43,066 nucleotides of DNA, from positions 1 through 43,066 of the IMG/VR virus record IMGVR_UViG_3300028831_000453; one strand, given 5' to 3'. The stretch comes from a virus. Position numbers and translations under genes: made by a program. The notes under the pieces are model-generated. The model did no database searches and was not told the DNA's origin. It was given only the letters and a program-made list of their open reading frames with translations. Of this stretch, positions 9,542-31,048 are shown in pieces (within the stretch, counting starts at the first letter, position 1; each line of letters opens with the position of its first letter).

Positions 9542-9570
9542 ATTCGCCCTCCCTTCGTCCGTGTTCGCGA

Positions 9571-9591: not shown

Positions 9592-9664
9592 CCATGCGGA
9601 TCATCGCGGTCCTGGGACTTGAGTTAGGAGAATCGCTCCCCGCATGGCATTTTGTCCCAACGCG

Positions 9665-9958: not shown

Positions 9959-10137
9959 GCCGAAATCCGCGTGCTGCTTGCGGCAGCTTCGATCCAAATG
10001 CGAAAGCACTCAGCGCACAAGGGAGTGCCCGTCACACCTTCAGCTTCCCGCGGTCCAGATACAATCTTGCACAACGGCACGAGGTAGTCATCCAATATGT
10101 GCGCGTTCTTGTCGATCCACGTCCGCGAGAGTTTCAC
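9955..10137 (-). CDS. Hypothetical protein (60 aa)
   Basis: GTG 10137 overlaps the helicase stop (GTGA). Contains a single CAEC pair plus one additional upstream Cys. Lower-GC segment. Confidence 0.5.
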   Translation of the reverse strand: MKLSRTWIDKNAHILDDYLVPLCKIVSGPREAEGVTGTPLCAECFRIWIEAAASSTRISA

Positions 10138-11195
10138 TCTGCCGCGACCTCAACCTTCGCCCAAGTGTTCTTCATGACGCGCTCAATGCAGCCCCGATGC
10201 TTGAGTTGCGTCAGCGCGTTGCGCACAGCCTTTTCCCCCTGCGTCCCGTCGCGTGCCAGCCCCTCCTCCATCACCTTCTCCACCAGCTCCTGCACAGTCC
10301 GGGGCTCCGTCATCCACGCCAGCACGAACTTGTGTAACCGCTGCCACTTGGTCGCGCTGCCCTTGTGGATATTTCCAACCTCCCGCAGTTCCAGCACCAC
10401 GCCCCCAGCTCGCGGCACCAGCGCAAACTCATAGCTATCCCCGGCGTTCCGCAGCCCGCGCGACTTGAGCACACGCATCATCTTATTCCCGCCCGGCATC
10501 ACATCCAAGTGCCAAATCCAGTCCGCCGCCGTCTCCTTCACGCTGCTACCGCGCGCCTGATATACGCTGCGCCGCAGCCTGCCGGCGACGGGCGGATGGT
10601 CGGTGATGATGACGGCCACACCGGCCCTAACCGCGATCTCAGCCGCCGCCCCCATCACTCCGTCCATCTCCATGCGTGAGTTCTCGTCCGCTGAGTTGCA
10701 GTTGCTGAAGCAGTCGAGCACGCAGATGTCCGCATCGTGATATTGCAGAGACTCTATCAACTTGCCGACCAGCACCGCGCTATTGAGGTCCATTATCCGC
10801 CCAGCGCTGCGCGCCCGATAAACGATCTTGTCCCCGATGGCGTCAAAGCTCAGCAACCTACCCGCGATCAAGCTCTCGTACTGATCCTTCATCGCCCACG
10901 CCGCGCTATCGAAGAAGAACGCAGCGGTCTTGAGCACCCGCTCGCTCCGCTTCCCGAGGAAGCTCTGTCCCGTGGCAACCGCGATCGCGAGATCGAGCAC
11001 GGTCAAAGTCTTGCCGACATGTGGCTCAGCCACGACCAGCCCCACGCTCCCGCGCAGCAAGAACCCGGGCAGCAACTCGCGCGGCTTCCCGTTCCGCATC
11101 AACTCGTTTGCCGGCTGAAAGTTGAAGTGGTCCATCTTCACTTCGGGCTCCATGTCCTCGGGATCGAACGTCGGCTCCTCAAGCTCTTCGGTCAT
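10134..11195 (-). CDS. AAA_25 / RepA-DnaB-like RecA-fold ATPase, probable replicative helicase, with C-terminal winged-helix-like tail (353 aa)
   Basis: LLRGSVGLVVAEPHVGKTLTVLDLAIAVATGQSFLG carries Walker A in the typical AAA_25 context, and DICVLDCF is Walker B. Start taken at ATG 11195 (MTEELEEP); the ORF stays open to 11291. Confidence 0.8.
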   Translation of the reverse strand: MTEELEEPTFDPEDMEPEVKMDHFNFQPANELMRNGKPRELLPGFLLRGSVGLVVAEPHVGKTLTVLDLAIAVATGQSFLGKRSERVLKTAAFFFDSAAWAMKDQYESLIAGRLLSFDAIGDKIVYRARSAGRIMDLNSAVLVGKLIESLQYHDADICVLDCFSNCNSADENSRMEMDGVMGAAAEIAVRAGVAVIITDHPPVAGRLRRSVYQARGSSVKETAADWIWHLDVMPGGNKMMRVLKSRGLRNAGDSYEFALVPRAGGVVLELREVGNIHKGSATKWQRLHKFVLAWMTEPRTVQELVEKVMEEGLARDGTQGEKAVRNALTQLKHRGCIERVMKNTWAKVEVAAE

Positions 11196-11382
11196 TGTCC
11201 GGGCGCTTTCGTGGCTAGAAGTTGGTCGGATGGTGAGTCGGCCTAAGCGGCGACCCGCTTTGAGATTGCGCCGCTCGGAGCACCCTCGCACAAACCGCCG
11301 CCGCTGCCAAGACTCAATCTTCGTGCCACGGTCACGAAATTGTTCGGCTTCATCCGCCCGGCGGTCCTCTGACGCCCGGCAG

Positions 11383-11423
11383 AAAAAAATCCTCCTACTC
11401 TAATAAGAACCTAGAGCGGATTT
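11383..11423 (-). terminator. AT-rich imperfect stem-loop followed by a T7 run (minus strand): candidate intrinsic terminator
   Basis: The minus strand reads AAATCC-GCTCTA-GGTTCTTAT-TAGAG-TAGGA-GGATTT-TTTT. It stands out as an AT-rich patch in a GC-rich genome. The stem is weak and interrupted. Confidence 0.35.
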
Positions 11424-11434
11424 CTCCAACACAT

Positions 11435-11489
11435 GGCCCCTCCCCTCCATGCCAGCCCGCTGGCGCGGCTGGCCGGAGGGGGGTAGGCC
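11435..11489. other. Long GC-rich stem-loop (about 20 bp of pairing in nested arms) downstream of the 11555..12001 gene
   Basis: GGCC..CCCCTCC pairs with GGAGGGG..GGCC, and the inner GCCAGCC pairs with GGCTGGC around a 9-nt loop. Paired by eye with one bulge and one mismatch. Confidence 0.6.
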
Positions 11490-11554
11490 AGCCTTACCCG
11501 GCGCGGAGATGATTCTCCAGCGACGCAGAATGACCCAGGATCGACTCGGGGCGC

Positions 11555-12001
11555 TCAAACGTCCTCGGCGCCATCCTGCCCCCCGTTCGGCCCGCCACGG
11601 TCAACCTTGGCACGCAGGCGCGCCTCCGCAGCCACCCTCGCCAAGTGCCCCGCATTAGCCCACGTCCCCCGGGCAACCTCATTCCACCACATGACCTCAC
11701 CTATAAGTCTATAATTACCATTGACATCCACCGCAACTAACCCAGTGCTCCAGTCCCGGATAGCGGCCTGGCGCGCAGCGCGCTCGTACAAGCTGCGCGG
11801 CTTGCCGGGTCGAGGGCGCCCCACGGGACCGACTGGCAAATATTTGGCCGCCTCCCGTCCACACTCCGCGTCCCACTCCAGCTCCGCTTCCCTCACGCCC
11901 AGCTCGGCGCTTTCCCGCTCCGCTGCCTCAGCCGCCAGCTCCACTGCATCGATCTCCGCTTGCTCCGCACCGACATCCGGCTCCCGCTCCCGGTCACTCA
12001 C
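11555..12001 (-). CDS. Hypothetical protein (148 aa), acidic helical N-terminal half
   Basis: GTG 12001 overlaps the upstream stop (GTGA). GC3-rich frame. No domain recognised. Confidence 0.65.
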   Translation of the reverse strand: MSDREREPDVGAEQAEIDAVELAAEAAERESAELGVREAELEWDAECGREAAKYLPVGPVGRPRPGKPRSLYERAARQAAIRDWSTGLVAVDVNGNYRLIGEVMWWNEVARGTWANAGHLARVAAEARLRAKVDRGGPNGGQDGAEDV

Positions 12002-12255
12002 TCTGCACCTCCCGCCGCGCACTCGCGGCACAGCGCCGCCCCCGGCGGATCAGGGTCCCACCTGACCGCACACCGCTCGCACACAATCCGCTGGCACTCG
12101 TCGCAGGTCAGATACCCCGCATACTCCTCCTGCCGCATCCCGCACACATCACACACCGCCGCAAATCTCACCACCGGCATACGCTTCCCCTCTCTGCGAA
12201 TGTCCCTACTCAACCGCTCGATCGTCTCCCCAAAGTGACACACTCGCAGCCTCAT
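11998..12255 (-). CDS. Zinc-ribbon protein with four Cys pairs (85 aa)
   Basis: CDVCG, CDECQ, CERC, CRECA. ATG 12255 overlaps the upstream stop (ATGA). Confidence 0.65.
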   Translation of the reverse strand: MRLRVCHFGETIERLSRDIRREGKRMPVVRFAAVCDVCGMRQEEYAGYLTCDECQRIVCERCAVRWDPDPPGAALCRECAAGGAE

Positions 12256-12422
12256 GGCTTCGGCTCCGGCTTCTTGCTCGAGGCAGTCAACTCACTAAGC
12301 TTGACCTCAAACGCCATCTCCAACCTATCCAAAAGTATCTGTCGTTCCCGAGTCGGGAGGTCCACCGTATGGTCCACAATATACGCTAGCTCATCCCTGA
12401 ATGGACGTCGCCGTAGCTTCAT
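12252..12422 (-). CDS. Hypothetical protein (56 aa)
   Basis: ATG 12422 overlaps the upstream stop (ATGA). GC3-rich frame. Confidence 0.55.
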   Translation of the reverse strand: MKLRRRPFRDELAYIVDHTVDLPTRERQILLDRLEMAFEVKLSELTASSKKPEPKP

Positions 12423-12628
12423 GGCTGTCCCGCTTTCGGCCATGCATCATCCAGCTCGGCGCCATCAACCTCCGGCTCCGCCAGCATCCCCGCCTCTGCC
12501 ATCCCCCGATACTCGTCCCCGACATCCGAAGCCATCCCGCACCAATGGCACACCGGCCAGCGCGACTTCTCCACCAGCAGCGCCCCACACTTCCGACACC
12601 ACTCATACTGCTTCACATATGCCGCCAT
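12419..12628 (-). CDS. Zinc-ribbon protein (69 aa)
   Basis: ATG 12628 lies 5 nt after GGGAGG. CRKCG ... CHWCG. Confidence 0.6.
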   Translation of the reverse strand: MAAYVKQYEWCRKCGALLVEKSRWPVCHWCGMASDVGDEYRGMAEAGMLAEPEVDGAELDDAWPKAGQP

Positions 12629-12643
12629 ACCGCCTCCCGCTAA

Positions 12644-12661
12644 GGTATATGTATATATACC
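12644..12661. promoter_or_regulatory. Inverted repeat GGTATAT-GTAT-ATATACC: candidate operator and/or -10 region for the minus-strand genes below
   Basis: Read directly. It is the only AT-rich patch in the 61-nt gap between two minus-strand genes, 16 nt upstream of the 12628 start. Confidence 0.4.
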
Positions 12662-12689
12662 GCCCACGCGCCACGCGCCGTCCCGACGC

Positions 12690-12881
12690 TCAACCGAGAT
12701 AGTCCCCGCACTCTTTGCACGTCCAATCCGGCTCCAGTCCCTCAGTATAGAACACCGGCCCGCACGGATGATTCCGCAGCCTGCACAACACCGCACGCCA
12801 AAGCGGCGTGCCCCAGCGCGGTTTCCGAAACACTACCGTACGCCACCACGTGAAGCGCAATAGCATGATCGCGTGCAGCAT
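12690..12881 (-). CDS. Cys-containing small protein (63 aa)
   Basis: The ATG shares its A with the upstream TGA (TGATG). Hydrophobic or basic N-terminus. C..C...CKEC pattern. Confidence 0.55.
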   Translation of the reverse strand: MLHAIMLLRFTWWRTVVFRKPRWGTPLWRAVLCRLRNHPCGPVFYTEGLEPDWTCKECGDYLG

Positions 12882-16504: not shown

Positions 16505-16782
16505 GCGAGCAGTTTCTTGAAGCCGTCGAAGACCTAAAGACTTGGTGTTTCCGACAACAATATGCGGTTGACCATCCGCCAATGGCCGCGAATGAGTTCA
16601 GCACTCAAATAGACGCGGCACGTGCGAAGGTGATCGAGTTGTTCGACGCGGCGATTATTCGCTACGGTGAACTCGTGCGAGAGGCGTGTGCGGACTTCTG
16701 CGAGAGGAACGCCGAGCCAGGTATTGATGGCGTATCGTTCGCGAAGGCGCTGCGCATGCTGCCGCTACCGGAGCCGCGATGA
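16501..16782 (+). CDS. Hypothetical protein (93 aa), paralogue of the previous gene
   Basis: ATG 16501 overlaps the upstream stop (ATGA). YGELVREACADF and a terminal LPLPEPR. Confidence 0.6.
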   Translation: MSEQFLEAVEDLKTWCFRQQYAVDHPPMAANEFSTQIDAARAKVIELFDAAIIRYGELVREACADFCERNAEPGIDGVSFAKALRMLPLPEPR

Positions 16783-17477
16783 GCGTCGTAGCTGCGTTCA
16801 GCGGCGGCAAGGATAGCACCGCGATGGCAACGCTGATGGCCGAGGCTGGTGAGGACTTCTCGCTGCTGTTCACGCCGACTGGAAACGAGTCCGATGAGTG
16901 CCTTGAGCATGTTCGCCATACTGCCGAACGCCTAAGCAAGCCGTTCACCATCAGATGGTCGGGGCACGGCCTCGTATCGCTCATCGAGCGCCAGCGGGCG
17001 CTTCCAAACTGGCGGCAGCGCTGGTGTACGCGAATGCTCAAAATAGAGCCATGTCAGACATACCTAGCCGAGAATCCCGGCACGGTCTTGTGCGTAGGAC
17101 TTCGGGCGGATGAGCCCGAGCGGTCAGGCTTGTGGGGTGATCTCGCGACCTATCGTTACCCACTACGCGAGGCCGAGATGGGATTAACAGAAGTTGTGTC
17201 GTTTCTTGAGGAGCGGAAGATTTGTGTACCCTCGCGAACAGACTGCGCCCTATGCTTCTTCCAGCGATTGATCGAATGGTACGAACTGTGGCGCGACCAC
17301 CCCAATAAATATGCCGAGGGCGAGCGACTGGAGGCGCTGACTGGCCATACTTTCCGCTCGCCGCAGCGCGACACTTGGCCGACCAGCATGAAAGGGATGC
17401 GCACGTGGTTCGAGGCTGGTCTGATTCCAAAGGACACACGCCAACGCACCGGCATGTGTCGGGTATGCTCGCTGTGA
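16779..17477 (+). CDS. PAPS-reductase family PP-loop enzyme (232 aa)
   Basis: AAFSGGKDSTAM is a PP-loop SGGxDS motif. RWCTRMLKIEP matches the phage PAPS_reduct-type WC..LK..P motif. C-terminal cysteines CALC and CRVC. The ATG overlaps the upstream stop. Confidence 0.8.
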   Translation: MSVVAAFSGGKDSTAMATLMAEAGEDFSLLFTPTGNESDECLEHVRHTAERLSKPFTIRWSGHGLVSLIERQRALPNWRQRWCTRMLKIEPCQTYLAENPGTVLCVGLRADEPERSGLWGDLATYRYPLREAEMGLTEVVSFLEERKICVPSRTDCALCFFQRLIEWYELWRDHPNKYAEGERLEALTGHTFRSPQRDTWPTSMKGMRTWFEAGLIPKDTRQRTGMCRVCSL

Positions 17478-19321: not shown

Positions 19322-19567
19322 GTGGTCACCACGATTACCACGGCGGTCACCTCCAACTTTGTAGAGCATTGCTACACCGTGGGCTTCCCCAACACCTACC
19401 ATCGAGGCCGCTTGGAACACATCTTGAGATGTATGTTCCAGTGCCCGCACTGCCATCGCCTGTTTTGGCGCACTCGCAGTACGGAAATGCCGTGGCTGTT
19501 GTGTGATGGACCGTCTCTGGCGGGCATGACTTGGATTAGTTGCGAGGTCGAGGAACCGCCAGTATGA
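19322..19567 (+). CDS. Cys/His-containing small protein (81 aa)
   Basis: GTG start. Lower-GC segment. FQCPHCHRLF plus additional Cys and His. Its stop overlaps the terminase ATG. Confidence 0.5.
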   Translation: MVTTITTAVTSNFVEHCYTVGFPNTYHRGRLEHILRCMFQCPHCHRLFWRTRSTEMPWLLCDGPSLAGMTWISCEVEEPPV

Positions 19568-21456
19568 CTCGACGGGCGCGCTCCGACGAAGCGATCCTCG
19601 ATGCCGCGATCGCCCGCCGCGACTCCGGCAAGCCGTGGCGCTTCCGCGACGCCGAGCGGCTTGCGAAGCAGGCCACAGCCCGAGCGGCGCGCGCCGCCAG
19701 CATTCGTGCGAGCCGCGACCTGTGGGGGATCGCGGAGGGCGATCGCGATTTCCACAGCGTCTACACACCGCTGGAGCGCTGGCCCAGCGCCGTCGAGCAC
19801 GAGTTCTGGCGTCACGAGTGTGTCGAGCACTTCTGGCCCTTCTTCCTCCACGCATGGGGCACCCTCCACGGCCCCCACGCCCGCGACTGGTGGATCGATC
19901 GCCAGGAGGTCGCGGAGCCGCTCGCGTGGTGGCTGGAGCAGCAGGCGCGCACCTGGCTCGCGAGCCGGGCCGAGCACAAGAAGCTCATCCACCACATCGC
20001 GGTGATCGTCACGAGGGAGTTCGGCAAGACGACCATGCTCCAGGCGTGGTTCTTGTGGCTGCACCTCCAGGACCCCAACCTCTCGACCTATATCGGTGGC
20101 GAGAAGGAGTCGCTCGCGAGCGACTCGCTGCTGGCGATCCGGGCCGTTCTGGGAGGGAGCGACCGCCACGCCCAGTTCGCCAAGATGTACGGCGACTGGC
20201 TTGGCAGCGAGGGCATCCAGCGCCGCGAGTCGATCACCCACAATGTGCGCAGCACGACGACGCGCCGCGACCCCTCGTTTGGCGTGTGGGGCGTCGAGTC
20301 CGGCTTGACGGGCCGTCATCCCGACGCGGCGGCGCTCGACGACCCCAACACCTACGAGCGCCAGCAGGCGCAGGGCAACTGGTTCGACATCGTCACCCTC
20401 CACTGCGCCAGCCTGACGCCGGTCATCCGCGTGGACGGCCTGTTCGCGCTGTGGGGCACCCCCTACGCCGACAACGATCACCTCGCCAAGACGCTGCGCC
20501 GCGACGGCATCGCGTCCATCACGGGCCTGCCGATGCACGACTTCACGCCGCGCGCGAACGGCGCGTGGCACGTCTTCCACTTTCCGGGGCGCACCCGCAG
20601 CGGTCGGCCGACCGTCCCGAACGTGTGGTCCGAAGCGCGCATGAACGCCTTCGAGCTGGAGAATCCCGATCGCTACGCGGCACAGGTGCTGCTCCGGCCG
20701 GAGATCAGCGAGCGCAACCCGCTCACGCTGGAGCAGATTCAGGACTGCATGGTGGACGAGAAGGACATCCCCATGAACTTCCTGCGCTATACGCTGCACT
20801 TCGACACCGCGTTCAAGGACAGCTTCCGCCGCGACGGCGACGAGAGCGTCTTCGTCGTGTGGGGCCACATGCGCGACGGCTCCGGCGAAGTGGTATATAT
20901 AGAGGGCCACGGCAGCAGCCTGTGGCGCGGTGAGGAGTTCTACCGAGAGGTGGTGCGCCTGCTGCAACGTTATCGGCGCATGGGCCGCAAGATCGTCGCC
21001 ATCACCGACGAAGTGTCGCCGGGCAAGCGCCAGACCGGCCGCATGATGCTCGAATCGCAGTGCAACGGCGCGGGCATCAGCCGCCCAGGCGAGTGGATCG
21101 AGATCGCGCGCGGCGGCAAGAAGAAGCTTGAGCAGCGCATCATCCCGGCCGCCACGATGTGGGCGGATGGCTACGTCAAGCTCGTTCGCACGGCGCCCGG
21201 CCTCGACAAGCTGGTCGCGCAGATGTCGCGCATCGGCAGGAGCGACTTGGACGACTGGGCCGACGCGAGCGCTGATGTCTTCAACCCCTCGGTCTATCGC
21301 CGCCAGCGCCGCGCCGATCGTCCCGACGAGAGCGTCCCCGCGTGGCTCGCGTCCCCGCAGGACGTGATCCTGAAGGGCGCCGCCCACGACGAAGCGCTGC
21401 GGCGCCAGTACGACAGCTGGGTCCGGCGCGACGAGATGGATTATGAGCCAGTCTGA
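19564..21456 (+). CDS. terL: Terminase large subunit (630 aa)
   Basis: ATPase Walker A-like TREFGKTT. Nuclease-domain acidic motifs LHFDTAF, DESVFVVWG and DDWADASAD near the C-terminus. Position upstream of the portal. ATG 19564 overlaps the upstream stop (ATGA). Confidence 0.85.
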   Translation: MTRRARSDEAILDAAIARRDSGKPWRFRDAERLAKQATARAARAASIRASRDLWGIAEGDRDFHSVYTPLERWPSAVEHEFWRHECVEHFWPFFLHAWGTLHGPHARDWWIDRQEVAEPLAWWLEQQARTWLASRAEHKKLIHHIAVIVTREFGKTTMLQAWFLWLHLQDPNLSTYIGGEKESLASDSLLAIRAVLGGSDRHAQFAKMYGDWLGSEGIQRRESITHNVRSTTTRRDPSFGVWGVESGLTGRHPDAAALDDPNTYERQQAQGNWFDIVTLHCASLTPVIRVDGLFALWGTPYADNDHLAKTLRRDGIASITGLPMHDFTPRANGAWHVFHFPGRTRSGRPTVPNVWSEARMNAFELENPDRYAAQVLLRPEISERNPLTLEQIQDCMVDEKDIPMNFLRYTLHFDTAFKDSFRRDGDESVFVVWGHMRDGSGEVVYIEGHGSSLWRGEEFYREVVRLLQRYRRMGRKIVAITDEVSPGKRQTGRMMLESQCNGAGISRPGEWIEIARGGKKKLEQRIIPAATMWADGYVKLVRTAPGLDKLVAQMSRIGRSDLDDWADASADVFNPSVYRRQRRADRPDESVPAWLASPQDVILKGAAHDEALRRQYDSWVRRDEMDYEPV

Positions 21457-22072
21457 GGAAAGTTCGCGCAGCGAACTTGAGGGGGGCGCGGTGAAGGCCG
21501 ACTCGTCGGACCGAGGGACTGGCGCGCCGGCCACAGGGACTGCGCCCCCCGTCACGCTGACAAGCCTGACCGCGCACCGCATCACCGAGCCGTGGCAGGT
21601 CGAGCGGATGCGCCAAATCTACAACGAAACGCTCCCCGACCTGGCGACTCGTCCCGGCCTGACGCCGCGCACCGAAGCCGCGCAACAAGAGTGGTGGTCC
21701 GAGGTCCACGACCACGCGGTCGCCCACCTCTACAGTCCCATCACCGAACCGTGGAAGTTCGTCGCGTTCTCGCTCGTCCAATGGAAGCCGGGCGGCATCG
21801 TCACCCCGCTGTTCGCGATCGAGACCGCGTGGCAGGGTCGCGGTCTCGGGCGCCAGATCATCGACCACTACCTCAAGATCGCGAACGCCCCACTCGCGGG
21901 CAGCGCTCTCACGAGCAACCGCGCGATCATGCACCTCAATGAGCGCGCCGGCTGGCAGCAGCTCGCCGAGCGCGATGGCGTCGCTCTGCTCTACCACCCC
22001 GGCCCGCACCCGACCGACGACGCCCGCCAGCGCGAAATCTTCGACGCGATCATGGAATATCATGGCCTCTGA
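21443..22072 (+). CDS. GNAT-family N-acetyltransferase (209 aa, low-complexity N-terminal 50 aa)
   Basis: AWQGRGLGRQIIDHYL matches GNAT motif A (Q/R-x-x-G-x-G/A). Start uncertain; ATG 21443 overlaps the terminase by 14 nt. Confidence 0.7.
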   Translation: MSQSEESSRSELEGGAVKADSSDRGTGAPATGTAPPVTLTSLTAHRITEPWQVERMRQIYNETLPDLATRPGLTPRTEAAQQEWWSEVHDHAVAHLYSPITEPWKFVAFSLVQWKPGGIVTPLFAIETAWQGRGLGRQIIDHYLKIANAPLAGSALTSNRAIMHLNERAGWQQLAERDGVALLYHPGPHPTDDARQREIFDAIMEYHGL

Positions 22073-22679
22073 CGCGGCGACGGCGACGGCAACCGTCAGC
22101 ATCCTCTGCCCCACGCTCGGTCGCAGTTCTCTCGGCACGATCGTCCAGCAGGCGGACATCCAGCTCGGCCCCCACGACGAGCTGATCGTGGTCGGCGATG
22201 GCCCGCGCCCCGCAGCACGCACGCAGATGGAGCCCTTCGTCACCGATCCGCGCTTCCAATATCTGGAGTTCCCGCCCGACGCCCCGACCGGCCACTACGG
22301 CAGCGAGCAGGTCGATCACGCCATCACCCACGCGCGTGGCAACTACCTGATGTTCATCGGCGACGACGACGAGTTGGCTCCCGAAGCCATCAGCACCTTC
22401 CGCAAGGTCTGCACGCCCATCGACCCCCACCCCTACCTGTTCGCCATGAGCTACGCCGGTGAGATCATGCGCCGCAACCTCCACTGCGGCGGCTGCAGCG
22501 GTCAGCAGTTCGTGGTCCCCAACGATCCCGCGCGGCTCGCCCGCTACTCCGACAGCGGCGGCCAGACCAACGATTGGCACTTCATGTCCCGAACGCTCGA
22601 ACTGTGGGGCGGCCGGATCGAGATTCGCGACGAAATCCTGACCATCCTGCGTGGCCGCCACCACGGAGCCATCTGGTGA
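22062..22679 (+). CDS. Family-2-type (GT-A) glycosyltransferase, short soluble form (205 aa)
   Basis: VSILCPTLGRSSL ... ELIVVGDG is the GT2 N-terminal pattern, and MFIGDDDEL is a DxD motif. No TM segments seen. Confidence 0.65.
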   Translation: MASDAATATATVSILCPTLGRSSLGTIVQQADIQLGPHDELIVVGDGPRPAARTQMEPFVTDPRFQYLEFPPDAPTGHYGSEQVDHAITHARGNYLMFIGDDDELAPEAISTFRKVCTPIDPHPYLFAMSYAGEIMRRNLHCGGCSGQQFVVPNDPARLARYSDSGGQTNDWHFMSRTLELWGGRIEIRDEILTILRGRHHGAIW

Positions 22680-23779
22680 AGCTCAACCTCGATCCATGTC
22701 ACCGCATGAGCGGCGAGCTGCTGACCGTCATCGCTCGCGTCGTCACGAGCGAGTGGTACATTCGCGGTCCCGAGTTCGACGCCTTCAACGCGGAGTTCGC
22801 GGCCAGCATCGATCCGCGCGCCCACGCGGTGGGCGTCGGCAGCGGCACCGACGCCCTCTACCTGATCCTGCGCGCTGCCGGCATCGGTCCCGGTGATGAG
22901 GTCATCAGCCCCGCGATGAATGTCGCTTATACGGCGCTCGCGATCGCCAACGTCGGTGCGACGCCCATCTTCGCGGACGTGGACCCAGCGACGTTGACAC
23001 TCGACCCCTCGGCAGCGGCAGCCGCCATCACCCCGCGTACGAAAGCCCTGATCCCGGTACATCTGTATGGGTACATGGCCGACATGCGCGCGCTCGCGGA
23101 GATTGCCCAGCGCCATGCCCTGCTGCTGATCGAGGATGCCTGCCAAGCGCATGGCGCTACACTCGACAGCCGCGCAGCCGGCGCGTGGGGCGATGCAGCG
23201 GCCTTCAGCTTCTACCCGACCAAGAACCTCGGCGCGTTCGGCGACGGCGGCGCGGTCGTGTCGCGCGACGCAGCACTGATCGAGCGCATCAGCCAGCTCG
23301 CGGACGGCGGCCGCAGCGACCGCTACGAGCACGCCGAGGTCGGCATCAACAGCAGTCTCGATGAACTCCAAGCGGCGGTGCTGCGCGTCAAGCTCAGCTA
23401 CCTGTCCGACTCCACGACGACCCGGCGCGCCCTCGCCAGCCGCTACACTGAAGCCTTCGAGGGCAGTCCGCTTCAGTTGCCAGCGGAGCTACCCGGCTAC
23501 CGTCACGTCTATCACCTCTATGCGGCGCGCAGCCAGCAGCGCGACGATCTGCGAATGCGCCTCGCGGAGCACGATATCCCGACGCTCATCCACTACCCGA
23601 TCCCCGTCCACCTCCAGCCCTGCTTTGCATCCCTCGGAGGTCGCGTGGGCCAGCACCCGGTCGCCGAGCGCGCCGCGCAGACGCTGCTCTCGCTCCCGCT
23701 CCATCCCGAGCTAACCTACGACGACCAGCAGCGCGTCATCACGACGACGCTCGCAGAGGTAGCCGCCAGTGCCCATTGA
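22676..23779 (+). CDS. DegT/DnrJ/EryC1/StrS-family PLP-dependent sugar aminotransferase (367 aa)
   Basis: GSGTDALYL, IEDACQAHGA and FSFYPTKNLGAFGDGGAV (catalytic Lys context), plus INSSLDELQAAVL. GTG overlaps the upstream stop (GTGA). Confidence 0.9.
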   Translation: MKLNLDPCHRMSGELLTVIARVVTSEWYIRGPEFDAFNAEFAASIDPRAHAVGVGSGTDALYLILRAAGIGPGDEVISPAMNVAYTALAIANVGATPIFADVDPATLTLDPSAAAAAITPRTKALIPVHLYGYMADMRALAEIAQRHALLLIEDACQAHGATLDSRAAGAWGDAAAFSFYPTKNLGAFGDGGAVVSRDAALIERISQLADGGRSDRYEHAEVGINSSLDELQAAVLRVKLSYLSDSTTTRRALASRYTEAFEGSPLQLPAELPGYRHVYHLYAARSQQRDDLRMRLAEHDIPTLIHYPIPVHLQPCFASLGGRVGQHPVAERAAQTLLSLPLHPELTYDDQQRVITTTLAEVAASAH

Positions 23780-25754
23780 CATCGTCGCCCCGTCGGTCGT
23801 CAACCCGCCGCGCCCGCTGGTTGGCATGGGCCGCCAGTCCGACCGCGCCACCTACGCCCTGGCGCGCCAGCGCGCTGACAACGAGCGCTATGTCCAACTG
23901 GTGCGCGACCGCAAGCAGAAGTCTGAGCGCGTGTTCATGGCATACTATCAGCGCCTGGCGCGCCTCTACGACCGCTACCGTGGCATCTACAGCGGCAAGT
24001 TCGCCGCGTTCCGCAACAACATCCACATCCCGTTCATCTACAGCGTGATCCAGTCCGACGTAGCGCGGAAGGTGCAGATGTCACTCGGCAACTGGCCGCT
24101 GATGAGCTTCGAGGGCTACGCGCCCGAGGACGAGCCGATCGCGCGCAAGAACGAGCTGCTCGTGTCGGTGCAGTTCGAGGACGCCAAGCTCTACCAGAAA
24201 GCGATCGACTTCTTCCTGACGACCGACCTCTACGGCGTCGGCATCATGCGAGATGGCTGGAAGAGGGACATCCGCCGCAAGCGCATCCGGGTGCCACTTC
24301 CAGTGGCACCGGGCGTCACGATCGACCAGGTCGCCACCACCTGGCAGACCTTCTACGACGGTCCCAACTGCTACGTGGTCGATCCGCTCGACTTCATGCC
24401 GCAGCCCGGCATGCGCTTCATCGACGATATGATGTACGCCACCGAACGCTACTGGCGCGACCTCGACGACATGCGCGCCCAGGTCGCAGCGGAGATCGCG
24501 AACGGCATCCCGCGCGACGAGCTGTCGTTCGATCCAGCGGCGCTGGATCAGGTCGCCGCGACCGGCACCGAGAGCGACGCCGGCTCCCGCCTGATCGAGC
24601 GCTTGTCCATCTATCGCAACCAAACCGACTGGGAAGCGCGCAAGGGCGACAAGTATTCCAAGACCGTCGAAGTGTGGGACCACTGGTGTGCGCTGCCTGA
24701 CGAACTCGTCCCGCCCGACGGCATCCGCCACCGGCAGTTGATCGTCCTCAACGGCCGCGTCCTCGCCAAGAACGCGCCCAATCCCAACGATAACGGTGAG
24801 AAGCCCTGGACCAGCTACTCGATCGGCGACCCTCACTACTTCCACGGTGTCGGCAAGAGCGAGCTGCTCGAAAAGCTCCAGGCCGCCGCCAATCGGCTGA
24901 TGAACCACGTGCTGGACGTGCAGGATTTGACGCTCAGTCCCGTGTTCCTGGCGAACAGCAGCATCTTCCCCCATCAGAATCTGGTGACGCAGCCCGGCCG
25001 CGTGTTCTCGATAGATGGACCCGTGGGCGACGACGTGATCCGGCCGATCGCGATCGACCGCCAGGGCCTCCAGACCGCGATGCCCCTGGTCAACCTGATG
25101 TGGCAGTACATGCAGCAGGGCTCGGGGATCGTGGAGGACATCGTCCAAGGCGGCCAGGGCCAGCGCCAGACCGCGCGTGAGTTCCAGGGACGCCAGGAGG
25201 CGGTGATGACCCGCCTCATGATGGAGTCCCGCATCGCCGAGGAGATGTGGCTCGAACCGCTCGCCAACCGCTTCCGCATGCTCAATCGCCAGTACCTGCC
25301 GCTGCCGAAGCAGATGTCGATCTTGGGCTCGCTCGCGCGCTTCAATCCCATCACCGGCAGTCCCCTGCCGCCGGACCTCAACCCGACGATCACCCACGAA
25401 GACCTGTGGCCCGACTACCGGGCGCGTGCGGTAGGCGCCAACCAAACGATGATGCGCAGCGCGACGCAGCAGAACGTGATGATGCTGCTCCAGGCGATGT
25501 CCGCCAACCCGCCGCTGATGCAGCTCGTCAACTGGGTCAACTTCGCGCGCCAAATGTTCGAGGTGTTCGGCTTCAGGAACGTGCAGGAGCTGCTCGTGCA
25601 GCTCCCGCAGGTCGGCATGGGCAGCCAGATGATGGGCGTGCCGCCCGAGGCGGCGGCGACCGCGATGGGCTCGCCCGAGACGCTCGATCCCTCGCACATC
25701 CAGTCGATGATGGCTGCCGGCGGCGAGCTGGGCGGTCTCGCAGCACCCTTCTAA
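23769..25754 (+). CDS. Portal protein (661 aa)
   Basis: Large ORF between the packaging genes and scaffold/capsid. Size, position and the N-terminal segment (YDRYRGIYSG..NIHIPFIYSVIQSDVARK) resemble podovirus portals. Not verified by search. Confidence 0.7.
   Translation: MPIDIVAPSVVNPPRPLVGMGRQSDRATYALARQRADNERYVQLVRDRKQKSERVFMAYYQRLARLYDRYRGIYSGKFAAFRNNIHIPFIYSVIQSDVARKVQMSLGNWPLMSFEGYAPEDEPIARKNELLVSVQFEDAKLYQKAIDFFLTTDLYGVGIMRDGWKRDIRRKRIRVPLPVAPGVTIDQVATTWQTFYDGPNCYVVDPLDFMPQPGMRFIDDMMYATERYWRDLDDMRAQVAAEIANGIPRDELSFDPAALDQVAATGTESDAGSRLIERLSIYRNQTDWEARKGDKYSKTVEVWDHWCALPDELVPPDGIRHRQLIVLNGRVLAKNAPNPNDNGEKPWTSYSIGDPHYFHGVGKSELLEKLQAAANRLMNHVLDVQDLTLSPVFLANSSIFPHQNLVTQPGRVFSIDGPVGDDVIRPIAIDRQGLQTAMPLVNLMWQYMQQGSGIVEDIVQGGQGQRQTAREFQGRQEAVMTRLMMESRIAEEMWLEPLANRFRMLNRQYLPLPKQMSILGSLARFNPITGSPLPPDLNPTITHEDLWPDYRARAVGANQTMMRSATQQNVMMLLQAMSANPPLMQLVNWVNFARQMFEVFGFRNVQELLVQLPQVGMGSQMMGVPPEAAATAMGSPETLDPSHIQSMMAAGGELGGLAAPF
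23772..23780 (+). promoter_or_regulatory. CCCATTGAC motif, copy 2 (at the portal start, spanning the aminotransferase stop)
   Basis: Read directly. It lies within coding sequence, so it may be coincidental. Confidence 0.25.
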
Positions 25755-26252: not shown

Positions 26253-26993
26253 ATGACCGTCTCGAACCAGCCGCCAGCGAATCCTGCGGCCCCCGACGCC
26301 GATCCGATCAACACCGCCCTCCGCGACGTGAACTACCAGAGCGTCGATGAGTGGAAGGAAGCCACTCACGCGGCCCGAGGCCGCCTGCGGCAGCAGCAGG
26401 AGCAGCTTCAAGCTCTTCAAGCGCAGCTTGAAGAGGTGCAGCGCCGCATGTTGCCGAGCGAAGCTCGTCAGCAGCGCGACTCCGCTGCCGACCTCGCGAC
26501 CTACGTCCCGATGGACGCTCTCGACGCCTACGTCAACGACCGCATCCAGCGCAGCATCGACGGCACGATCGGCCCGCTCGTCAAGACCAACGCAGCCCTA
26601 ACCCGCGTCAAGGCAGCGATTCCTGACTTCGCGCGTTTCGAACCCGAGTGGCAGCAGTGGCTTGCTGCCAATCCCGACTTGAATCGACGTTTCCAGGAAG
26701 GCCTCTTGAAGGCCCCCGACGAAGCTGACCTCACGATCGCCGGAGCCTACAAGCTCTTCGAGACCGAGCGTCGCGCGAGCGCGCCCGAGCCCAAGCCGCC
26801 AACCGTCCCCAACTCCGCGACGCTCCCATCGACACAGGGCAGCGGCTCGGCGCGGGGCCAGGACGTGGGCGGCCCATCTCCCGAAGAGATGCAGGCAACC
26901 GTCAAGGCGGCCAGCGCTGGAAACGTCCGCGCCAAGATTCAGCTCATGAAGTGGCGTGGCATCATGCACCCGGAGCTACCGCCGCAGCCCTAG
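26253..26993 (+). CDS. Scaffolding protein candidate (246 aa)
   Basis: Located between portal and capsid. Gln/Glu/Leu-rich coiled coil (RLRQQQEQLQALQAQLEEVQRR) with low-complexity ends. Confidence 0.65.
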   Translation: MTVSNQPPANPAAPDADPINTALRDVNYQSVDEWKEATHAARGRLRQQQEQLQALQAQLEEVQRRMLPSEARQQRDSAADLATYVPMDALDAYVNDRIQRSIDGTIGPLVKTNAALTRVKAAIPDFARFEPEWQQWLAANPDLNRRFQEGLLKAPDEADLTIAGAYKLFETERRASAPEPKPPTVPNSATLPSTQGSGSARGQDVGGPSPEEMQATVKAASAGNVRAKIQLMKWRGIMHPELPPQP

Positions 26994-27030: not shown

Positions 27031-28005
27031 GTGGCTCATCCAGTTCAACAGTCCGTCTATGAACTCGGCGGTCCGTTTGCTGGCGGCAGTTCCGTCATCA
27101 AAGAAGACCTCGCCGACGTTGTCATCAACATCGACCCCTACGACACTCCCGGCTACTCGACGTTCGCCAAGACCGTCGCCAAGTACACCAGCCACGACTG
27201 GGTGGTCGCATCCCTGAGCGCGACCAGCACAGCAGGCACCGAGGAAGGTAAGACCTTCGCACCCGCTGCGCGCCCCAGCCGCGTGCGTCTCATCAACCTG
27301 ACGCAAATCTTCGAGAATCCCTTCGTCGTCAGCGACACGATGCGCGCGGTCGATCCGGCCGGCGTCACCGACGAGTACATGCTGCAAGCGATGTACGCGA
27401 TGCAGGAGGAGACGCGTAACATCGAGTCCAGTATCTTCAAGATCGCTTCGACCAGCGCTACGGGCGACGACGCGGCTGGCACCGGCGCCGTGCGCGTCAT
27501 GAAGGGTCTGCGCGGCTTCAACGTCACCAACAACGCGACCTACTATGTCCAGTTGACGGCGCAGACTACGACTATTGCAACCGGCGACATCATCAACCTC
27601 CACGAAGCCATGTTCACCCTCGGCGCCAAGCCCGACAGCCTGTGGGTGTCGCCGGGCGTCAAGGCTGACCTGACCAAGGCACTCGTCGCCGCCGGCGGCA
27701 ACTTCCGCCTCAACATCGCCGCCAGCGACAACACGATGATCAACAACATCGAAGTCTTCCAGAGCGACTTCGGACTGCTGCCGATCATCACGGATCGATT
27801 CATCCCGCAAGCGTCGGCCTCGACGACGAGCGCCGCATGGTTCCTGATCGAGCGCTCCAAGGTCCGGATCGCGGTGCTGCGGCCGATGCACCACGTTCCG
27901 ATCGCGAAGCGCGAAGACGGCACGGCCGGCAACGTCATTACCGAGCTGACGCTCGAACTCATGCATCCCTATTGTGTGGGAGCCGGCACTGGCGTCACGA
28001 CCTAA
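27031..28005 (+). CDS. Major capsid protein, HK97 fold, DUF5309/SU10-type (324 aa)
   Basis: KEDLADVVINIDPYDTPGYSTFAKTVAKYTSHDW and LINLTQIFENPFVVSDT match the conserved N-terminal pattern of this capsid family as I remember it. GTG follows GGAGG. Confidence 0.85.
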   Translation: MAHPVQQSVYELGGPFAGGSSVIKEDLADVVINIDPYDTPGYSTFAKTVAKYTSHDWVVASLSATSTAGTEEGKTFAPAARPSRVRLINLTQIFENPFVVSDTMRAVDPAGVTDEYMLQAMYAMQEETRNIESSIFKIASTSATGDDAAGTGAVRVMKGLRGFNVTNNATYYVQLTAQTTTIATGDIINLHEAMFTLGAKPDSLWVSPGVKADLTKALVAAGGNFRLNIAASDNTMINNIEVFQSDFGLLPIITDRFIPQASASTTSAAWFLIERSKVRIAVLRPMHHVPIAKREDGTAGNVITELTLELMHPYCVGAGTGVTT

Positions 28006-28151: not shown

Positions 28152-28469
28152 ATGAAGCACCCGAAACCGCGCCAGGGCGCCGACTACCGCCCAATCGGCG
28201 CACACGGCAATGCCCGCGCCGCGAACTTCGACCACGCCATCGACAGCCAGGAATCGAAGCTCGCCGAGGTCGCTCGCGCGTGGGGCGTCGATCCCGACCA
28301 GTACATTGGCGAGACCGCCGACGGTAAGCTACAGTTCTTCGACGCCGGTCCCGACGAATCGAACGGCGTCACGTATGAGGGACCGATGCCCAACTCGACG
28401 CCCTACATCCCGAAGGTCCGCAAGCCCAGCGACCCGACGCCGGGCATCAAGAAGGGGCACGGTTTGTGA
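28152..28469 (+). CDS. Hypothetical protein after the capsid (105 aa)
   Basis: ATG 28152 lies 5 nt after GGAGGTGG, in the GC3-rich tail of ORF 27837..28469. Confidence 0.65.
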   Translation: MKHPKPRQGADYRPIGAHGNARAANFDHAIDSQESKLAEVARAWGVDPDQYIGETADGKLQFFDAGPDESNGVTYEGPMPNSTPYIPKVRKPSDPTPGIKKGHGL

Positions 28470-28804
28470 GCGACGCACCGCAGCAGTTCTACGTACGTAA
28501 TCGAGACAACGACTGTCTCGATTACATGACCGACGATCGCTACCTGATGCGCAAGATTCCGGAGATGCGGGATCAGTTCGCGCACATCCGCTCGCTCCAG
28601 GAGCGATACTGGGACCTCCGCAAGATCACCTCCAACGGCGCGGTCGTGGGCGGTGCTGGCGACATGAAGTCTGTGGCGCTGATCCCCAAGGATGTCTTCC
28701 TCGCGGCTGAAGCGCTGGAGCCTGACTTCGTGAAGGACAAGTCGAAGTTCTTTGCGTGGCTGGAGCGCAATCCGCAATACAAATCCAACAGGGGGCCGCG
28801 CTGA
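28466..28804 (+). CDS. Hypothetical protein (112 aa)
   Basis: GTG overlaps the upstream stop (GTGA). Confidence 0.65.
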   Translation: MSDAPQQFYVRNRDNDCLDYMTDDRYLMRKIPEMRDQFAHIRSLQERYWDLRKITSNGAVVGGAGDMKSVALIPKDVFLAAEALEPDFVKDKSKFFAWLERNPQYKSNRGPR

Positions 28805-30135
28805 TGCCGCCGCTCCGCATCTACAGCATCGCCAACACGGTGACGTACAACGCTTCGACCTACTATCGCATCGATGTCCCGTTGACGACGATGGAGGAAC
28901 TCGGCCTGCCGGTCGAGCCGATTGTCGATTCCGGCGACCCCTCGATCCCCAACATCAATCGCGTTCTGGCGGTCACGCAGGCCGACATCAACCTGTTCTA
29001 CCAACCGGTCAGCGACTCGCTGCGGGAGCAGATGATCCGGCTCAAGTCCCTCTACCCGGCGCGCGACGCGACCGGCACATGGAAGTATCCGCCGAGCTTC
29101 GTCGTGGACACGGATGACAACCTGTTCATGGTCCATCCCATGAATCCCCAGTTCCGCGAGCTGGGCATCCGCATGCCAGATGGCAAGCTGCTTCGCCCCG
29201 GCGACGAAGTCGGCTCGATCGACGCCGAGACCAACGAGCGCATCGTCCTATGGAAAGACGGCCAGCGCGGCTTCGACATCGCCCGCAACATCGATCGGCT
29301 CCGCAGCTATCGCGACATCCTGGCGACCGCCGAGGGCGTGACGTGCTCCACGCCGCGCAGCGCCGAGTACGTCACCGCCGAGTCCGGCAACACGAATACC
29401 TTCGTGTCTCCGAACATGGTCCGCTTCGATCACTACGACAAGATCGACCTGCGCAACCACGCGCCCGAGGTGTGGGTGCTGTGGCAAGGTTCGACCACGC
29501 ACTTCGAGGACTTCTACGACATCCGAAACGCCCTCCCACTGGTCGTGAAGCGCTACCCGCAAGTGCGCTTCATCTTCTGGGGCGCCCTCCACCCGTGGAT
29601 CATCCAGAACCTACCTAGCGACCGCTTCAAGTACATCCGCTGGTGTCCCTACGCGGAGTATCGCTTGCGCCTCGCGACCATCGGCCACGACATCGCGATC
29701 GCCCCGCTGCGCCCGCACCGCTTCAACCAGTGCCGTAGCGCCATCAAGTTCTACGAGTCGGCGGTGCTCGATCGGCCAGCGGCGTTCCTGGGCCAGGGCG
29801 GCGAGACACCCTACGGCGACGAGGTGATCGACGGCCAGACCGGCCTCTTGTGGACGAGCGTCGAGGACTTCGTGACGAAGCTCAGCACGCTCATTGAGGA
29901 CGAGACGACGCGCTACTACCTCGCGTCCAACTCGCGCGACTGGTTGAGCGAGCACCGCGATGCTATGAAGCTCGCGCGTCCGCTGTACGAGTTCTATCAG
30001 AGCGTGCGCGCCCGCAAGCGTGACACGACGGCGCTGCCCAGTCCCGAGGAGTGGGCGACCAAGCGCGACGAAATCCTGAGCGCCGTCAACGCCCAACTCG
30101 CCGACTCGAACGGCCAACGTGTTCACGCCGAGTAG
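28804..30135 (+). CDS. GT-B-fold (GT1/GT4-like) glycosyltransferase (443 aa)
   Basis: The C-terminal half has the GT-B donor-domain pattern: VWVLWQGS...RFIFWG, DIAIAPL, SAIKFYESAVLDRPAAF, EVIDGQTGLLW and LIEDETTRYYL. The ATG shares its A with the upstream TGA. By-eye assignment. Confidence 0.6.
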   Translation: MPPLRIYSIANTVTYNASTYYRIDVPLTTMEELGLPVEPIVDSGDPSIPNINRVLAVTQADINLFYQPVSDSLREQMIRLKSLYPARDATGTWKYPPSFVVDTDDNLFMVHPMNPQFRELGIRMPDGKLLRPGDEVGSIDAETNERIVLWKDGQRGFDIARNIDRLRSYRDILATAEGVTCSTPRSAEYVTAESGNTNTFVSPNMVRFDHYDKIDLRNHAPEVWVLWQGSTTHFEDFYDIRNALPLVVKRYPQVRFIFWGALHPWIIQNLPSDRFKYIRWCPYAEYRLRLATIGHDIAIAPLRPHRFNQCRSAIKFYESAVLDRPAAFLGQGGETPYGDEVIDGQTGLLWTSVEDFVTKLSTLIEDETTRYYLASNSRDWLSEHRDAMKLARPLYEFYQSVRARKRDTTALPSPEEWATKRDEILSAVNAQLADSNGQRVHAE

Positions 30136-31048
30136 TCTCGTCGCCAGTGCGGCGGCTGCCGTGGTCGCCCAAACGGCAGGTGCTGGGAGCGACGCGGAGT
30201 CGCTGACGCTGGCGACGAGATCACTCGACGCGGCCGCGATGCGCTGGAATCGCTTGAAGTGGAAGTTTCTGTACACGGAGCAGTATATCGCGCTGGCGGC
30301 GCCGTTCACGGTCACCGGGTGCTCGGTGACAGCGGGCTCGACGACGCTCACGACGACTGTCGCTAGCGGCTTCGCGAGTGTGCTCGTGGACGACCTGATC
30401 GTCGATGCCAACTCGCTCGCGGGCGAGGTGCTCGTCGCCGCCGGCACCGGGACCGCCAGCACCGCCGTCACGATGCTGGCACCGGCGCTCACCACCACGA
30501 GCGGCATGTCGATCACCTTCCGCAGGCCGCTCTACGCCATTGCAAGCAATGTAAAGTCAGTATATGACCTGCGGCTAGGCGGCACCGCGTTCGTTCGACC
30601 GCTGTTCTACATCCAGCGCCGCAGCTACGATCGGCGCATCATCGACCAAGTGTCCGGTAGCACGCCCGTCGCCTACGACCTGTTCCTCCAGTCCGATCGG
30701 GGCAAGCTGCGCGTCATCCCGCCGCCCGACGCCGCGTACACGCTGCTCTTCCGCTACCATCGGCGCATCACGCTGCCGTCGCTCAACGCGACCGCGACGC
30801 TCGACATCCCTCAAGATTACGAAGATGTCTTCCTGGCGTGCGCCAAAGCGAACTTCCTGACCGACAAGAAGGACGACGGCGACCGGCGCGCGTACTGGGA
30901 CCGCTACGCGCGTGAGGGCCTCGCGCAGATGCGCAGCGACGAAGCCTACCTGGCGGACGAGATACTGACCTTCGAGCCGCCGAGCTACGGCGTGTACACC
31001 AACTTCGACCCCGGCACCTACCCGCAGTGGGAGTGGGGGACGTGGTAG
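30119..31048 (+). CDS. Head-tail adaptor or tail-tubular-A-like structural protein (309 aa), function tentative
   Basis: Assigned on its position between the head genes and the giant tail protein. GTG start overlaps the glycosyltransferase by 17 nt. No diagnostic motif. Confidence 0.6.
   Translation: MFTPSSLVASAAAAVVAQTAGAGSDAESLTLATRSLDAAAMRWNRLKWKFLYTEQYIALAAPFTVTGCSVTAGSTTLTTTVASGFASVLVDDLIVDANSLAGEVLVAAGTGTASTAVTMLAPALTTTSGMSITFRRPLYAIASNVKSVYDLRLGGTAFVRPLFYIQRRSYDRRIIDQVSGSTPVAYDLFLQSDRGKLRVIPPPDAAYTLLFRYHRRITLPSLNATATLDIPQDYEDVFLACAKANFLTDKKDDGDRRAYWDRYAREGLAQMRSDEAYLADEILTFEPPSYGVYTNFDPGTYPQWEWGTW

Follow-up and report, generated by a model that had tools for sequence, protein, structure and literature searches.

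The cassette and its three enzymes

The late region of virus record IMGVR_UViG_3300028831_000453 from IMG/VR, analysed here as one stretch of 43,066 nucleotides (nt) that we call the window, carries a cassette of three genes between those for the large terminase (TerL) and the portal. They encode a GNAT-fold N-acyltransferase (21443..22072), a short, soluble glycosyltransferase of family 2 with a GT-A fold (GT2; 22062..22679) and a pyridoxal phosphate-dependent sugar aminotransferase of the DegT/DnrJ/EryC1 family (DegT; 22676..23779), all on the plus strand and translationally coupled. The TerL stop codon and the GNAT ATG overlap by 14 nt (ATGAGCCAGTCTGA), the GNAT stop and the GT2 ATG at 22062 by 11 nt, the GT2 stop and the DegT GTG at 22676 by 4 nt (GTGA), and the DegT stop and the portal GTG at 23769 by 11 nt. 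Between TerL and portal, no site resembling a promoter or a terminator was found, and a weak terminator-like hairpin lies directly before TerL (19480-19494). The G+C content at third codon positions of the cassette genes (0.83-0.87) is the same as that of their neighbours; as overall G+C content is alike too, recent horizontal acquisition is unlikely. No membrane segment was found in the GNAT, GT2 or DegT proteins, and the maximum hydropathy over 19 residues is at most 1.3 in all proteins of the module.

DegT reaches 358.6 bits with Pfam PF01041, for which the cut-off is 19.8 (E = 5.4e-107), and the alignment spans positions 7-357 of the 360 in the profile. Its Schiff-base lysine lies in SFYPTKN (nt 23204-23227), a motif that is present in all relatives and aligns with that of PDB entry 7b0d, and the protein is predicted to be an aminotransferase, not a His-containing dehydratase such as ColD. 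GT2, taken alone, narrowly passes the Pfam PF00535 cut-off (29.8 bits against 23.3); all eight of its homologues match this family (best E = 2.5e-12), and a profile of the family matches solved GT2 enzymes with E = 4.7e-12. The GNAT protein belongs to no family in Pfam (E <= 0.01), PHROG or NCBIfam, with ArsN1a reaching only 17 bits against a cut-off of 170. A profile of seven homologues nevertheless matched RimI in the PDB (E = 1.2e-5), and an AlphaFold model (pLDDT, the predicted confidence score, 82) matched GNAT structures in Foldseek with E of about 1e-9; there were 420 matches at E <= 0.001, of which the best 50 were essentially all GNAT-type acetyltransferases. Residues 1-27 are disordered in the model (pLDDT <50), and relatives start at about residue 37. 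The acetyl-CoA motif A, QGRGLGR, is conserved among homologues, and remote members of the family match Pfam Acetyltransf_1 and Acetyltransf_3. The nearest solved relatives are RimI and phosphinothricin acetyltransferases, together with RimJ, RimL and lysine acetyltransferases; WecD and PseH were absent from the 18 PDB profile matches (E <= 10) and from the best 50 Foldseek matches. A sugar-related role for this protein rests, therefore, on gene linkage and not on homology.

A sequence-only reading of the window had described three consecutive, overlapping genes between TerL and portal, and all three are present there. The fold names that it gave are confirmed by Pfam, by profile comparison with the PDB and, for the GNAT protein, by AlphaFold2 and Foldseek. 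The motifs that it quoted, QGRGLGRQII (nt 21833), GDDDE (the DxD motif of GT2; nt 22359) and FSFYPTKN (nt 23204), are present and are conserved in every related cassette examined, the catalytic lysine, DxD and acetyl-CoA motifs being kept in all six non-redundant cassette loci. Its placement of soluble enzymes in the late operon agrees with the overlaps and the hydropathy given above.

The window is the whole genome of an uncultured SU10-like podovirus. Its first 58 bases are an exact repeat of its last 58 (1-58 and 43009-43066), so the genome is complete, either circularly closed or terminally redundant, and its true length is 43,008 bp. From about 15.4 kb onwards, the plus strand carries the late genes. 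TerL (19540..21456) is assigned by PHROG 38 (E = 1e-37) and by the NCBIfam T7-type terminase (E = 1e-10), and lies upstream of an SU10-type late module with the portal (23769..25754; PF23899, E = 1.3e-18), the major capsid protein (27031..28005; PF17236, E = 3.7e-53) and the head-tail adaptor (30119..31048; PF24175, E = 1.1e-8). A scaffold-like protein (26253..26993), recognised by position and by tblastn matches in relatives with no family match above threshold, lies between portal and capsid. After the capsid gene come a conserved protein of 112 residues, p112 (28466..28804), which has tblastn matches in two related loci (L004 and L017) and no family match, and a family 4 glycosyltransferase (GT-B fold; GT4; 28804..30135); all of these genes are on the plus strand. 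The early genes, on the minus strand, encode a GH108 endolysin, a family-A DNA polymerase with a UDG-like domain, an AAA_24 protein and a helicase-like AAA_25 protein. The polymerase is a single open reading frame (ORF) of 862 residues (2337-4925), in which an N-terminal UDG-superfamily domain (Pfam UDG, E = 4e-15) precedes the polymerase. A protein with a PAPS-reductase domain (Pfam, E = 2.6e-13) is encoded at 16779-17477, where the late region begins and ahead of the terminase genes.

There is no close sequenced phage. Among 50,697 phage records, megablast detected none that matched a 6.2-kb region, tblastn with the portal gave only two remote matches (about 20% identity), and capsid identity to isolates is at most 30%. 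Pfam scans of the approximately 40 ORFs of the complete genome found no integrase or repressor; no 4,6-dehydratase, nucleotidyltransferase, 3,4-ketoisomerase or 3-dehydrogenase; no cupin or FdtA match; and no ThyA homologue, C5-methyltransferase, or TET-like or other hydroxymethyl-base enzyme. The sequence-only reading had likewise reported that nucleotidyltransferase, 4,6-dehydratase, integrase and repressor are missing.

Gene linkage, a variable slot and a core glycosyltransferase

Related loci (designated L001 and so on) comprised 23 loci from IMG/VR, found with a portal alignment, and contigs retrieved through protein look-ups, with genes mapped by tblastn. A scan of IMG/VR with the single portal sequence had given no match, and the alignment-based scan was needed. 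Within this clade, the GNAT gene is present in all six DegT-positive non-redundant loci and in none of 18 DegT-negative loci. The order GNAT-GT2-DegT is found in the window and in L004. An extra gene of 229 residues separates GNAT from GT2 in L006, a methyltransferase gene lies between GT2 and DegT in L008, and the order is GNAT-DegT-GT2 in L015. In L001, the cassette lies beyond the portal and is joined by a second glycosyltransferase, GT2b (portal-GT2b-GNAT-GT2-DegT). The trio thus stays together across three gene orders and two positions.

Searched exhaustively with a profile, a set of 1.84 billion representative proteins yielded only 155 relatives of the GNAT protein, of which about a dozen, 330-414 residues long, are GT2-GNAT fusions: their N-terminal half matches the cassette GT2 profile over its full length and their C-terminal half matches the GNAT profile. 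In both contexts that were retrieved, a DegT gene directly follows the fusion, and in one the module directly follows a portal gene. Fusions of 348-364 residues followed by DegT lie at 1052-3881 of L053, 2421-3904 of L054 and 400-2643 of L055; the module behind the portal gene is that of L055. A metagenome scan with the GNAT alignment yielded 584 pattern matches and no relative. Three independent results thus support the prediction that GNAT, GT2 and DegT share one pathway, and the proposal of a single sugar-linked module gains from both the co-occurrence and the gene fusions. Cassette-bearing phages are interspersed with cassette-less ones: L017, whose portal is 67% identical to that of the window, has no cassette, and L001, at 39%, has one. 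This pattern indicates that the module moves or is lost as a unit.

The sequence-only reading took the cassette to be a wedge in a place where terminase and portal genes normally adjoin, and this does not hold in the clade. The TerL-portal gap is normally occupied in these phages and is a variable slot for sugar-tailoring genes; sometimes the variable interval lies between portal and scaffold or directly after the capsid gene. In place of the cassette, L033 has an FkbM methyltransferase and a sugar C-methyltransferase; L037 a C-methyltransferase, a short-chain dehydrogenase/reductase (SDR), a GT2 and an FkbM methyltransferase; L034 two methyltransferases and two GT2s; L035 a cytidylyltransferase; L019 a GT2b, a GT2 and an epimerase/dehydratase; and L017 a methyltransferase-like gene. 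L011, L016 and others have an RNase H-like gene only. A conserved protein of about 200 residues from the RNase H superfamily (Pfam RNase_H_2, E = 6e-5) is usual in the gap, occurs at 3734-4339 of L001, has homologues in most members of the clade and is not present in the window. The head operon thus combines a core glycosyltransferase with a glycan-tailoring slot, of which the cassette is one allele.

Three more distant uncultured freshwater podoviruses also have sugar-related genes close to their head genes. MW202801.1 (L009) carries radical-SAM, glycosyltransferase, PhyH, methyltransferase, NodB and glycosyltransferase genes after the capsid gene (8156-12819), MW202524.1 (L044) carries three glycosyltransferase genes after the capsid gene (3147-7307), and MW202713.1 (L048) has a TibC-like glycosyltransferase, a methyltransferase and a DegT-like gene directly before TerL (2165-6581). 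A DegT match in the Aphanizomenon 'phage' Yong-DA was set aside as uninformative, since the record resembles a plasmid and the neighbouring genes are ParA, ParB and Rep.

The core glycosyltransferase is GT4, a protein of 443 residues encoded between the capsid and adaptor genes, which had no part in the sequence-only account. Its gene overlaps that of p112 by 1 nt and that of the adaptor by 17 nt. The window protein itself has no Pfam match at E <= 0.01; its AlphaFold2 model (pLDDT 92.9) has full-length Foldseek matches to PglA, MshA, PimA, BshA, TarM and SdgB. The family comprises at least 117 clusters at 90% identity, of about 430-460 residues, on contigs of up to 49 kb (many of 37-49 kb), and many members carry Glycos_transf_1 (PF00534), Glyco_trans_1_2 (PF13524) or Glyco_trans_1_4 (PF13692). 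GT4 is present in all 11 tblastn-mapped loci that cover the region (eight after collapsing duplicates) and is syntenic in the six contigs retrieved through GT4 itself. Throughout this large, uncultured clade of SU10-like podoviruses, the gene belongs to the core. Genes of about 100-137 residues lie directly upstream of it in nearly all loci where the region is visible. Two GT4-bearing contigs, L040 and L041, were binned in metagenome-assembled genomes of Solibacteraceae (Acidobacteriota) and Binatia; this is a weak hint of soil hosts, and we do not take binning as host evidence.

The major capsid protein has an insertion in a surface loop that is rich in Ser, Thr and Ala (residues 262-270; nt 27814-27840), directly after a conserved DR[FW]xPxx motif. 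This loop is 8-31 residues long in all 15 aligned capsids of the clade, and in six related capsids of isolates that have no glycosyltransferase gene near the capsid gene it has two residues in four and 7-9 in the other two, a correlation confounded by shared ancestry that makes the loop a lead only. With this qualification, the loop may be a candidate site of O-glycosylation. The first capsid loop (SSIFK...RVMKG) was also considered as a marker and rejected, as it fails to separate phages with the glycosyltransferase from those lacking it.

Proposed chemistry and acceptor of the sugar

The sequence-only reading likened the DegT and GNAT pair to WecE/WecD and PglE/PglD, with amination at C4. 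Our comparisons do not favour this analogy. Among solved structures DegT scores highest with 7b0d (326 bits), followed by DesV (317), QdtB (297), WlaRG (252) and WbpE (243), the last four of which we take to be C3-aminotransferases. Structures of C4 enzymes score far lower: ArnB and perosamine synthases at about 175 bits (none above 176), WecE (4piw) at 134 and a PglE-like chain at 82. DegT falls below the NCBIfam cut-offs for WecE, PseC, ArnB, DesI and LegC, with 207 bits against 375 (PRK11706) and 163 against 435 (TIGR02379) for the WecE equivalogs and 220 against 423.5 for the PseC equivalog (TIGR03588), and the GNAT protein has no match to WecD or PseH. Because DegT is nearest to the C3 group and far from the C4 enzymes, C3 amination appears more likely than C4 amination, although it is not proven. 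Amination of the C3 type would require a 3-keto sugar; as in the genome scans, no cupin or FdtA match was seen in the related cassettes. The proposal that the keto-sugar nucleotide is derived from the host agrees with the complete genome, where the upstream steps were not found. The description of the pathway as self-contained does not agree with it: every step that would make a keto sugar is lacking, and the pathway must therefore branch off from an intermediate made by the host. Proteins that resemble enzymes acting on nucleoside diphosphate (NDP)-4-keto-6-deoxyhexoses, among them sugar C-methyltransferases (Methyltransf_13/14) and reductases or epimerases of the SDR type, are encoded by other alleles of the slot. 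There, too, the upstream steps are missing, which fits a common, host-supplied precursor.

We would tentatively read the cassette, as an allele of the slot, as a module that makes and transfers an N-acylated amino sugar, fed by a host keto sugar, with the virion as the most likely target. The sugar-tailoring part of this statement, on its own, we consider probable; the statement as a whole falls somewhat short of an even chance. The analysis establishes the folds, the catalytic motifs, how the three genes are linked, that the slot varies and that GT4 is core; we infer the substrates, the order of the steps and the acceptor as follows. DegT would convert a host-made, nucleotide-activated keto sugar, most likely an NDP-3-keto-6-deoxyhexose or a UDP-3-keto sugar and less likely a 4-keto sugar, to an amino sugar; the GNAT protein would N-acylate its amine; and the small, soluble GT2 would transfer the resulting acylamido sugar, the cassette being expressed together with the head genes. 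GT4 may lay down a base sugar on a virion protein, which the slot genes would diversify, and the clade-specific, Ser/Thr-rich loop of the capsid protein is a possible site of attachment. Among acceptors, a virion protein appears most likely, as the sequence-only reading had proposed, followed by a host envelope glycan; packaged DNA, its other proposal, is disfavoured. The virion is favoured by the coupling of the cassette and GT4 to TerL, portal and adaptor, by the core status of GT4 in the head module, by the solubility of the enzymes, by the lack of an integrase, by the capsid insertion and by precedents.

Several observations weigh against this interpretation. The position of genes is no proof of their target, and the acceptor is one that we infer. 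The correlation of the capsid loop is confounded by ancestry, and two phages that lack the glycosyltransferase have a shorter loop in the same place. The closest solved relatives of the GNAT protein acetylate proteins or amino acids, not sugars. Amination of the C3 type would make the phage depend on its host for a 3,4-ketoisomerase or a 3-dehydrogenase as well. The fusion module of L054 adjoins a PD-(D/E)XK nuclease gene and not head genes. Finally, in Sinorhizobium phage phiM5 (L045), the position syntenic with GT4, between capsid and tail tubular protein A, holds a GDSL/SGNH hydrolase (7728-9038) that is annotated as detected in the particle proteome, indicating that this locus can hold carbohydrate-active enzymes that are associated with the virion, and enzymes aimed at host glycans.

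It is possible, if rather unlikely, that the acceptor is instead a host envelope glycan (O-antigen, capsule, exopolysaccharide or S-layer), modified during infection by GT2 and GT4 as soluble enzymes that feed the host's lipid-linked assembly; such a change could block superinfection or stop progeny from sticking to debris. Most PDB relatives of GT2 and GT4 use acceptors that are lipid-linked or wall polymers (PglA, PglI, TarP, TarM and PimA), phage sugar genes are classically tied to changes of host serotype (PMC12619734), the hydrolase of phiM5 sits at the GT4 position, and the strain-level diversity of the slot would also fit a receptor arms race. However, the complete genome has no integrase or repressor, the module includes no flippase, Gtr-type or other membrane protein, and a core gene of the head module with at least 117 clusters would be unusual for a host-conversion moron. 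With the genes coupled to late head genes, lysis would also come so soon after expression that a remodelled polymer could hardly arrive at the surface in time. Classic lysogenic seroconversion of the Gtr or Oac type was considered and ruled unlikely, there being no lysogeny genes and no membrane proteins. The genes may alternatively be auxiliary metabolic cargo with no macromolecular target, which adjusts host nucleotide-sugar pools or makes a small glycosylated metabolite. DegT-type genes occur sporadically in unrelated phages, where they are annotated as auxiliary (26 records), and the structural neighbours of GT4 include small-molecule enzymes (MshA, BshA, TreT and sucrose-phosphate synthase). 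We regard this as improbable: a tightly coupled core gene in the head module of a 40-kb genome argues for a role linked to morphogenesis, and strain-level diversification of tailoring enzymes is typical of surface glycans.

The two remaining explanations concern a single enzyme and a different acceptor. The GNAT protein could be a protein N-acetyltransferase like RimI or RimL with a protein of the virion or the host as its substrate, in which case operon packing would account for its place beside the sugar genes. This would agree with its best matches (RimI, RimJ, RimL, phosphinothricin and lysine acetyltransferases) and the lack of a WecD or PseH match, and MW202801.1 encodes, among its tail genes, a GNAT that is annotated as RimL and has no DegT in its vicinity. 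A substrate, however, is not readable from similarity of fold alone, and the strict co-occurrence with DegT (6/6 against 0/18), the survival of this linkage through several rearrangements and the presence of DegT behind GT2-GNAT fusions in both contexts make independence very unlikely. Slightly less probable again is that the sugar is transferred to phage DNA, shortly before this is packaged, to form a hypermodification against restriction; the position beside terminase and portal would then be explained. Phage GT-A and GT-B enzymes do glycosylate DNA, with diverse glycans (bioRxiv 10.1101/2023.12.21.572611; PMC13326640), the site next to the packaging genes fits, and one related module adjoins a PD-(D/E)XK nuclease. 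But the known routes to glycosylated DNA start from a hydroxylated base, whose synthesis calls for either a homologue of thymidylate synthase or a C5-methyltransferase with a TET-like dioxygenase, and none of these was found in the genome; it is on this ground that we disfavour DNA. Moreover, T4 beta-glucosyltransferase is outside the best 50 structural matches of GT4 in both libraries, and the terms aminotransferase and acetyltransferase do not occur in the preprint on DNA glycans (bioRxiv 10.1101/2023.12.21.572611).

Taken further, decoration of the virion would mean that the podoviruses of this clade, which is large, uncultured and found in soil and freshwater, coat their particles with a glycan that varies between strains. 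GT4 would prime the capsid loop or another head protein, and interchangeable cassettes in the terminase-portal-scaffold slot would diversify the sugar from host keto-sugar precursors into amino or acylamido (the window), C-methyl, O- or N-methyl, epimerised and cytidylyl-activated variants. We put this forward as a speculative extension that is more doubtful than the tentative reading from which it follows.

Virus-encoded glycosylation of particles is known, and the main interest here lies in its possible breadth across a clade and in the swappable slot. In the literature cited here, the phages with experimentally demonstrated virion glycosylation are a few mycobacteriophages only, whose particles it protects from antibodies. 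If our interpretation is correct, self-glycosylation would be widespread in environmental podoviruses and could involve phage-encoded tailoring of the sugar and not transferases alone. The exchange of genes at the slot in the head operon would then reflect diversifying selection on the glycan, and the whole would amount to a 'serotype' system of phages, much like O-antigen loci or the islands for flagellin glycosylation. This would bear on phage stability and adsorption, on recognition by grazers and by immune and defence systems, and on the engineering of therapeutic phages. Whatever the target, glyco-engineering may gain from the cassette, as a compact path to acylamido-deoxy sugars by three enzymes, and from the naturally occurring GT2-GNAT fusions.

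Comparison with known systems

Glycosylation of phage DNA, by the alpha- and beta-glucosyltransferases of T4, in the arabosyl-5-hydroxycytosine of RB69 and DLP3 and by the 5mYOX glycosyltransferases, also employs phage-encoded GT-A and GT-B enzymes. To our knowledge, the T4 and RB69/DLP3 systems include no aminotransferase or acetyltransferase. RB69-like phages resemble the window clade in encoding nucleotide-sugar genes (PMC13326640). These DNA systems differ in their need for a ThyA homologue or for a C5-methyltransferase with a TET-like enzyme (PMC13326640; bioRxiv 10.1101/2023.12.21.572611), neither of which was found in the window.

The bacterial pathways to 3-amino-3,6-dideoxyhexoses and related sugars (QdtA/B/C, FdtA/B/C, DesV/DesVI and WbpB/E/D) provide an enzymatic parallel to DegT, in that DesV, QdtB, WlaRG and WbpE are among its closest solved relatives (243-317 bits). 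In these pathways an aminotransferase is followed by N-acylation or N-methylation, as would be the case in the cassette and in the methyltransferase-bearing L008. The window differs in that no 3,4-ketoisomerase or 3-dehydrogenase was found. The acetyltransferases QdtC, FdtC and WbpD are left-handed beta-helix enzymes and not GNATs. WecD and PseH are GNATs. WecE/WecD, PseC/PseH and PglE/PglD also pair a DegT-family aminotransferase with an N-acetyltransferase, but DegT of the window misses the NCBIfam equivalog cut-offs for both WecE and PseC. The flagellin glycosylation islands of Gram-negative bacteria resemble the slot as strain-variable islands of glycosyltransferase, DegT, acyltransferase and methyltransferase genes in the locus of the protein that is decorated (PMC4875605). 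They are cellular, their acceptor is known to be flagellin, and the likeness is one of logic only.

Virion glycosylation is described for mycobacteriophages (Che8 gp110, Corndog gp38 and Myrna), whose capsid and tail proteins are glycosylated (Freeman et al. 2023, cited through PMC12363180 and PMC12619734), so that the precedent named by the sequence-only reading exists. As proposed here for the window, phage glycosyltransferases have been proposed or shown in those accounts to decorate the phage's own capsid or tail, with donor sugars drawn from host metabolism. Those phages are actinobacteriophages, for which the cited literature describes only glycosyltransferases. The window clade, in contrast, consists of uncultured podoviruses that combine a head-operon GT4 with swappable aminotransferases and acyl-, methyl- and C-methyltransferases.

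A parallel for the complete series of steps comes from the fibril glycan cluster of Mimivirus, which includes the dehydratase R141, the pyridoxal phosphate-dependent aminotransferase L136, the N-acetyltransferase-glycosyltransferase fusion L142, several glycosyltransferases and a predicted methyltransferase (PMC9614988). Mimivirus is a giant eukaryotic virus that, unlike the window phage, encodes its own 4,6-dehydratase and aminates at C4 (viosamine); its acetyltransferase was modelled on PglB and not on a GNAT, and its proteins have no sequence relationship to those of the cassette. The order of logic, from aminotransferase to N-acetyltransferase to glycosyltransferase in the service of a glycan on the virion surface, is nevertheless the one that we propose here (PMC9614988). 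The resemblance extends to the fusion of acetyltransferase and glycosyltransferase in L142, as in the GT2-GNAT fusions among relatives of the cassette, and to methylation as an optional extra.

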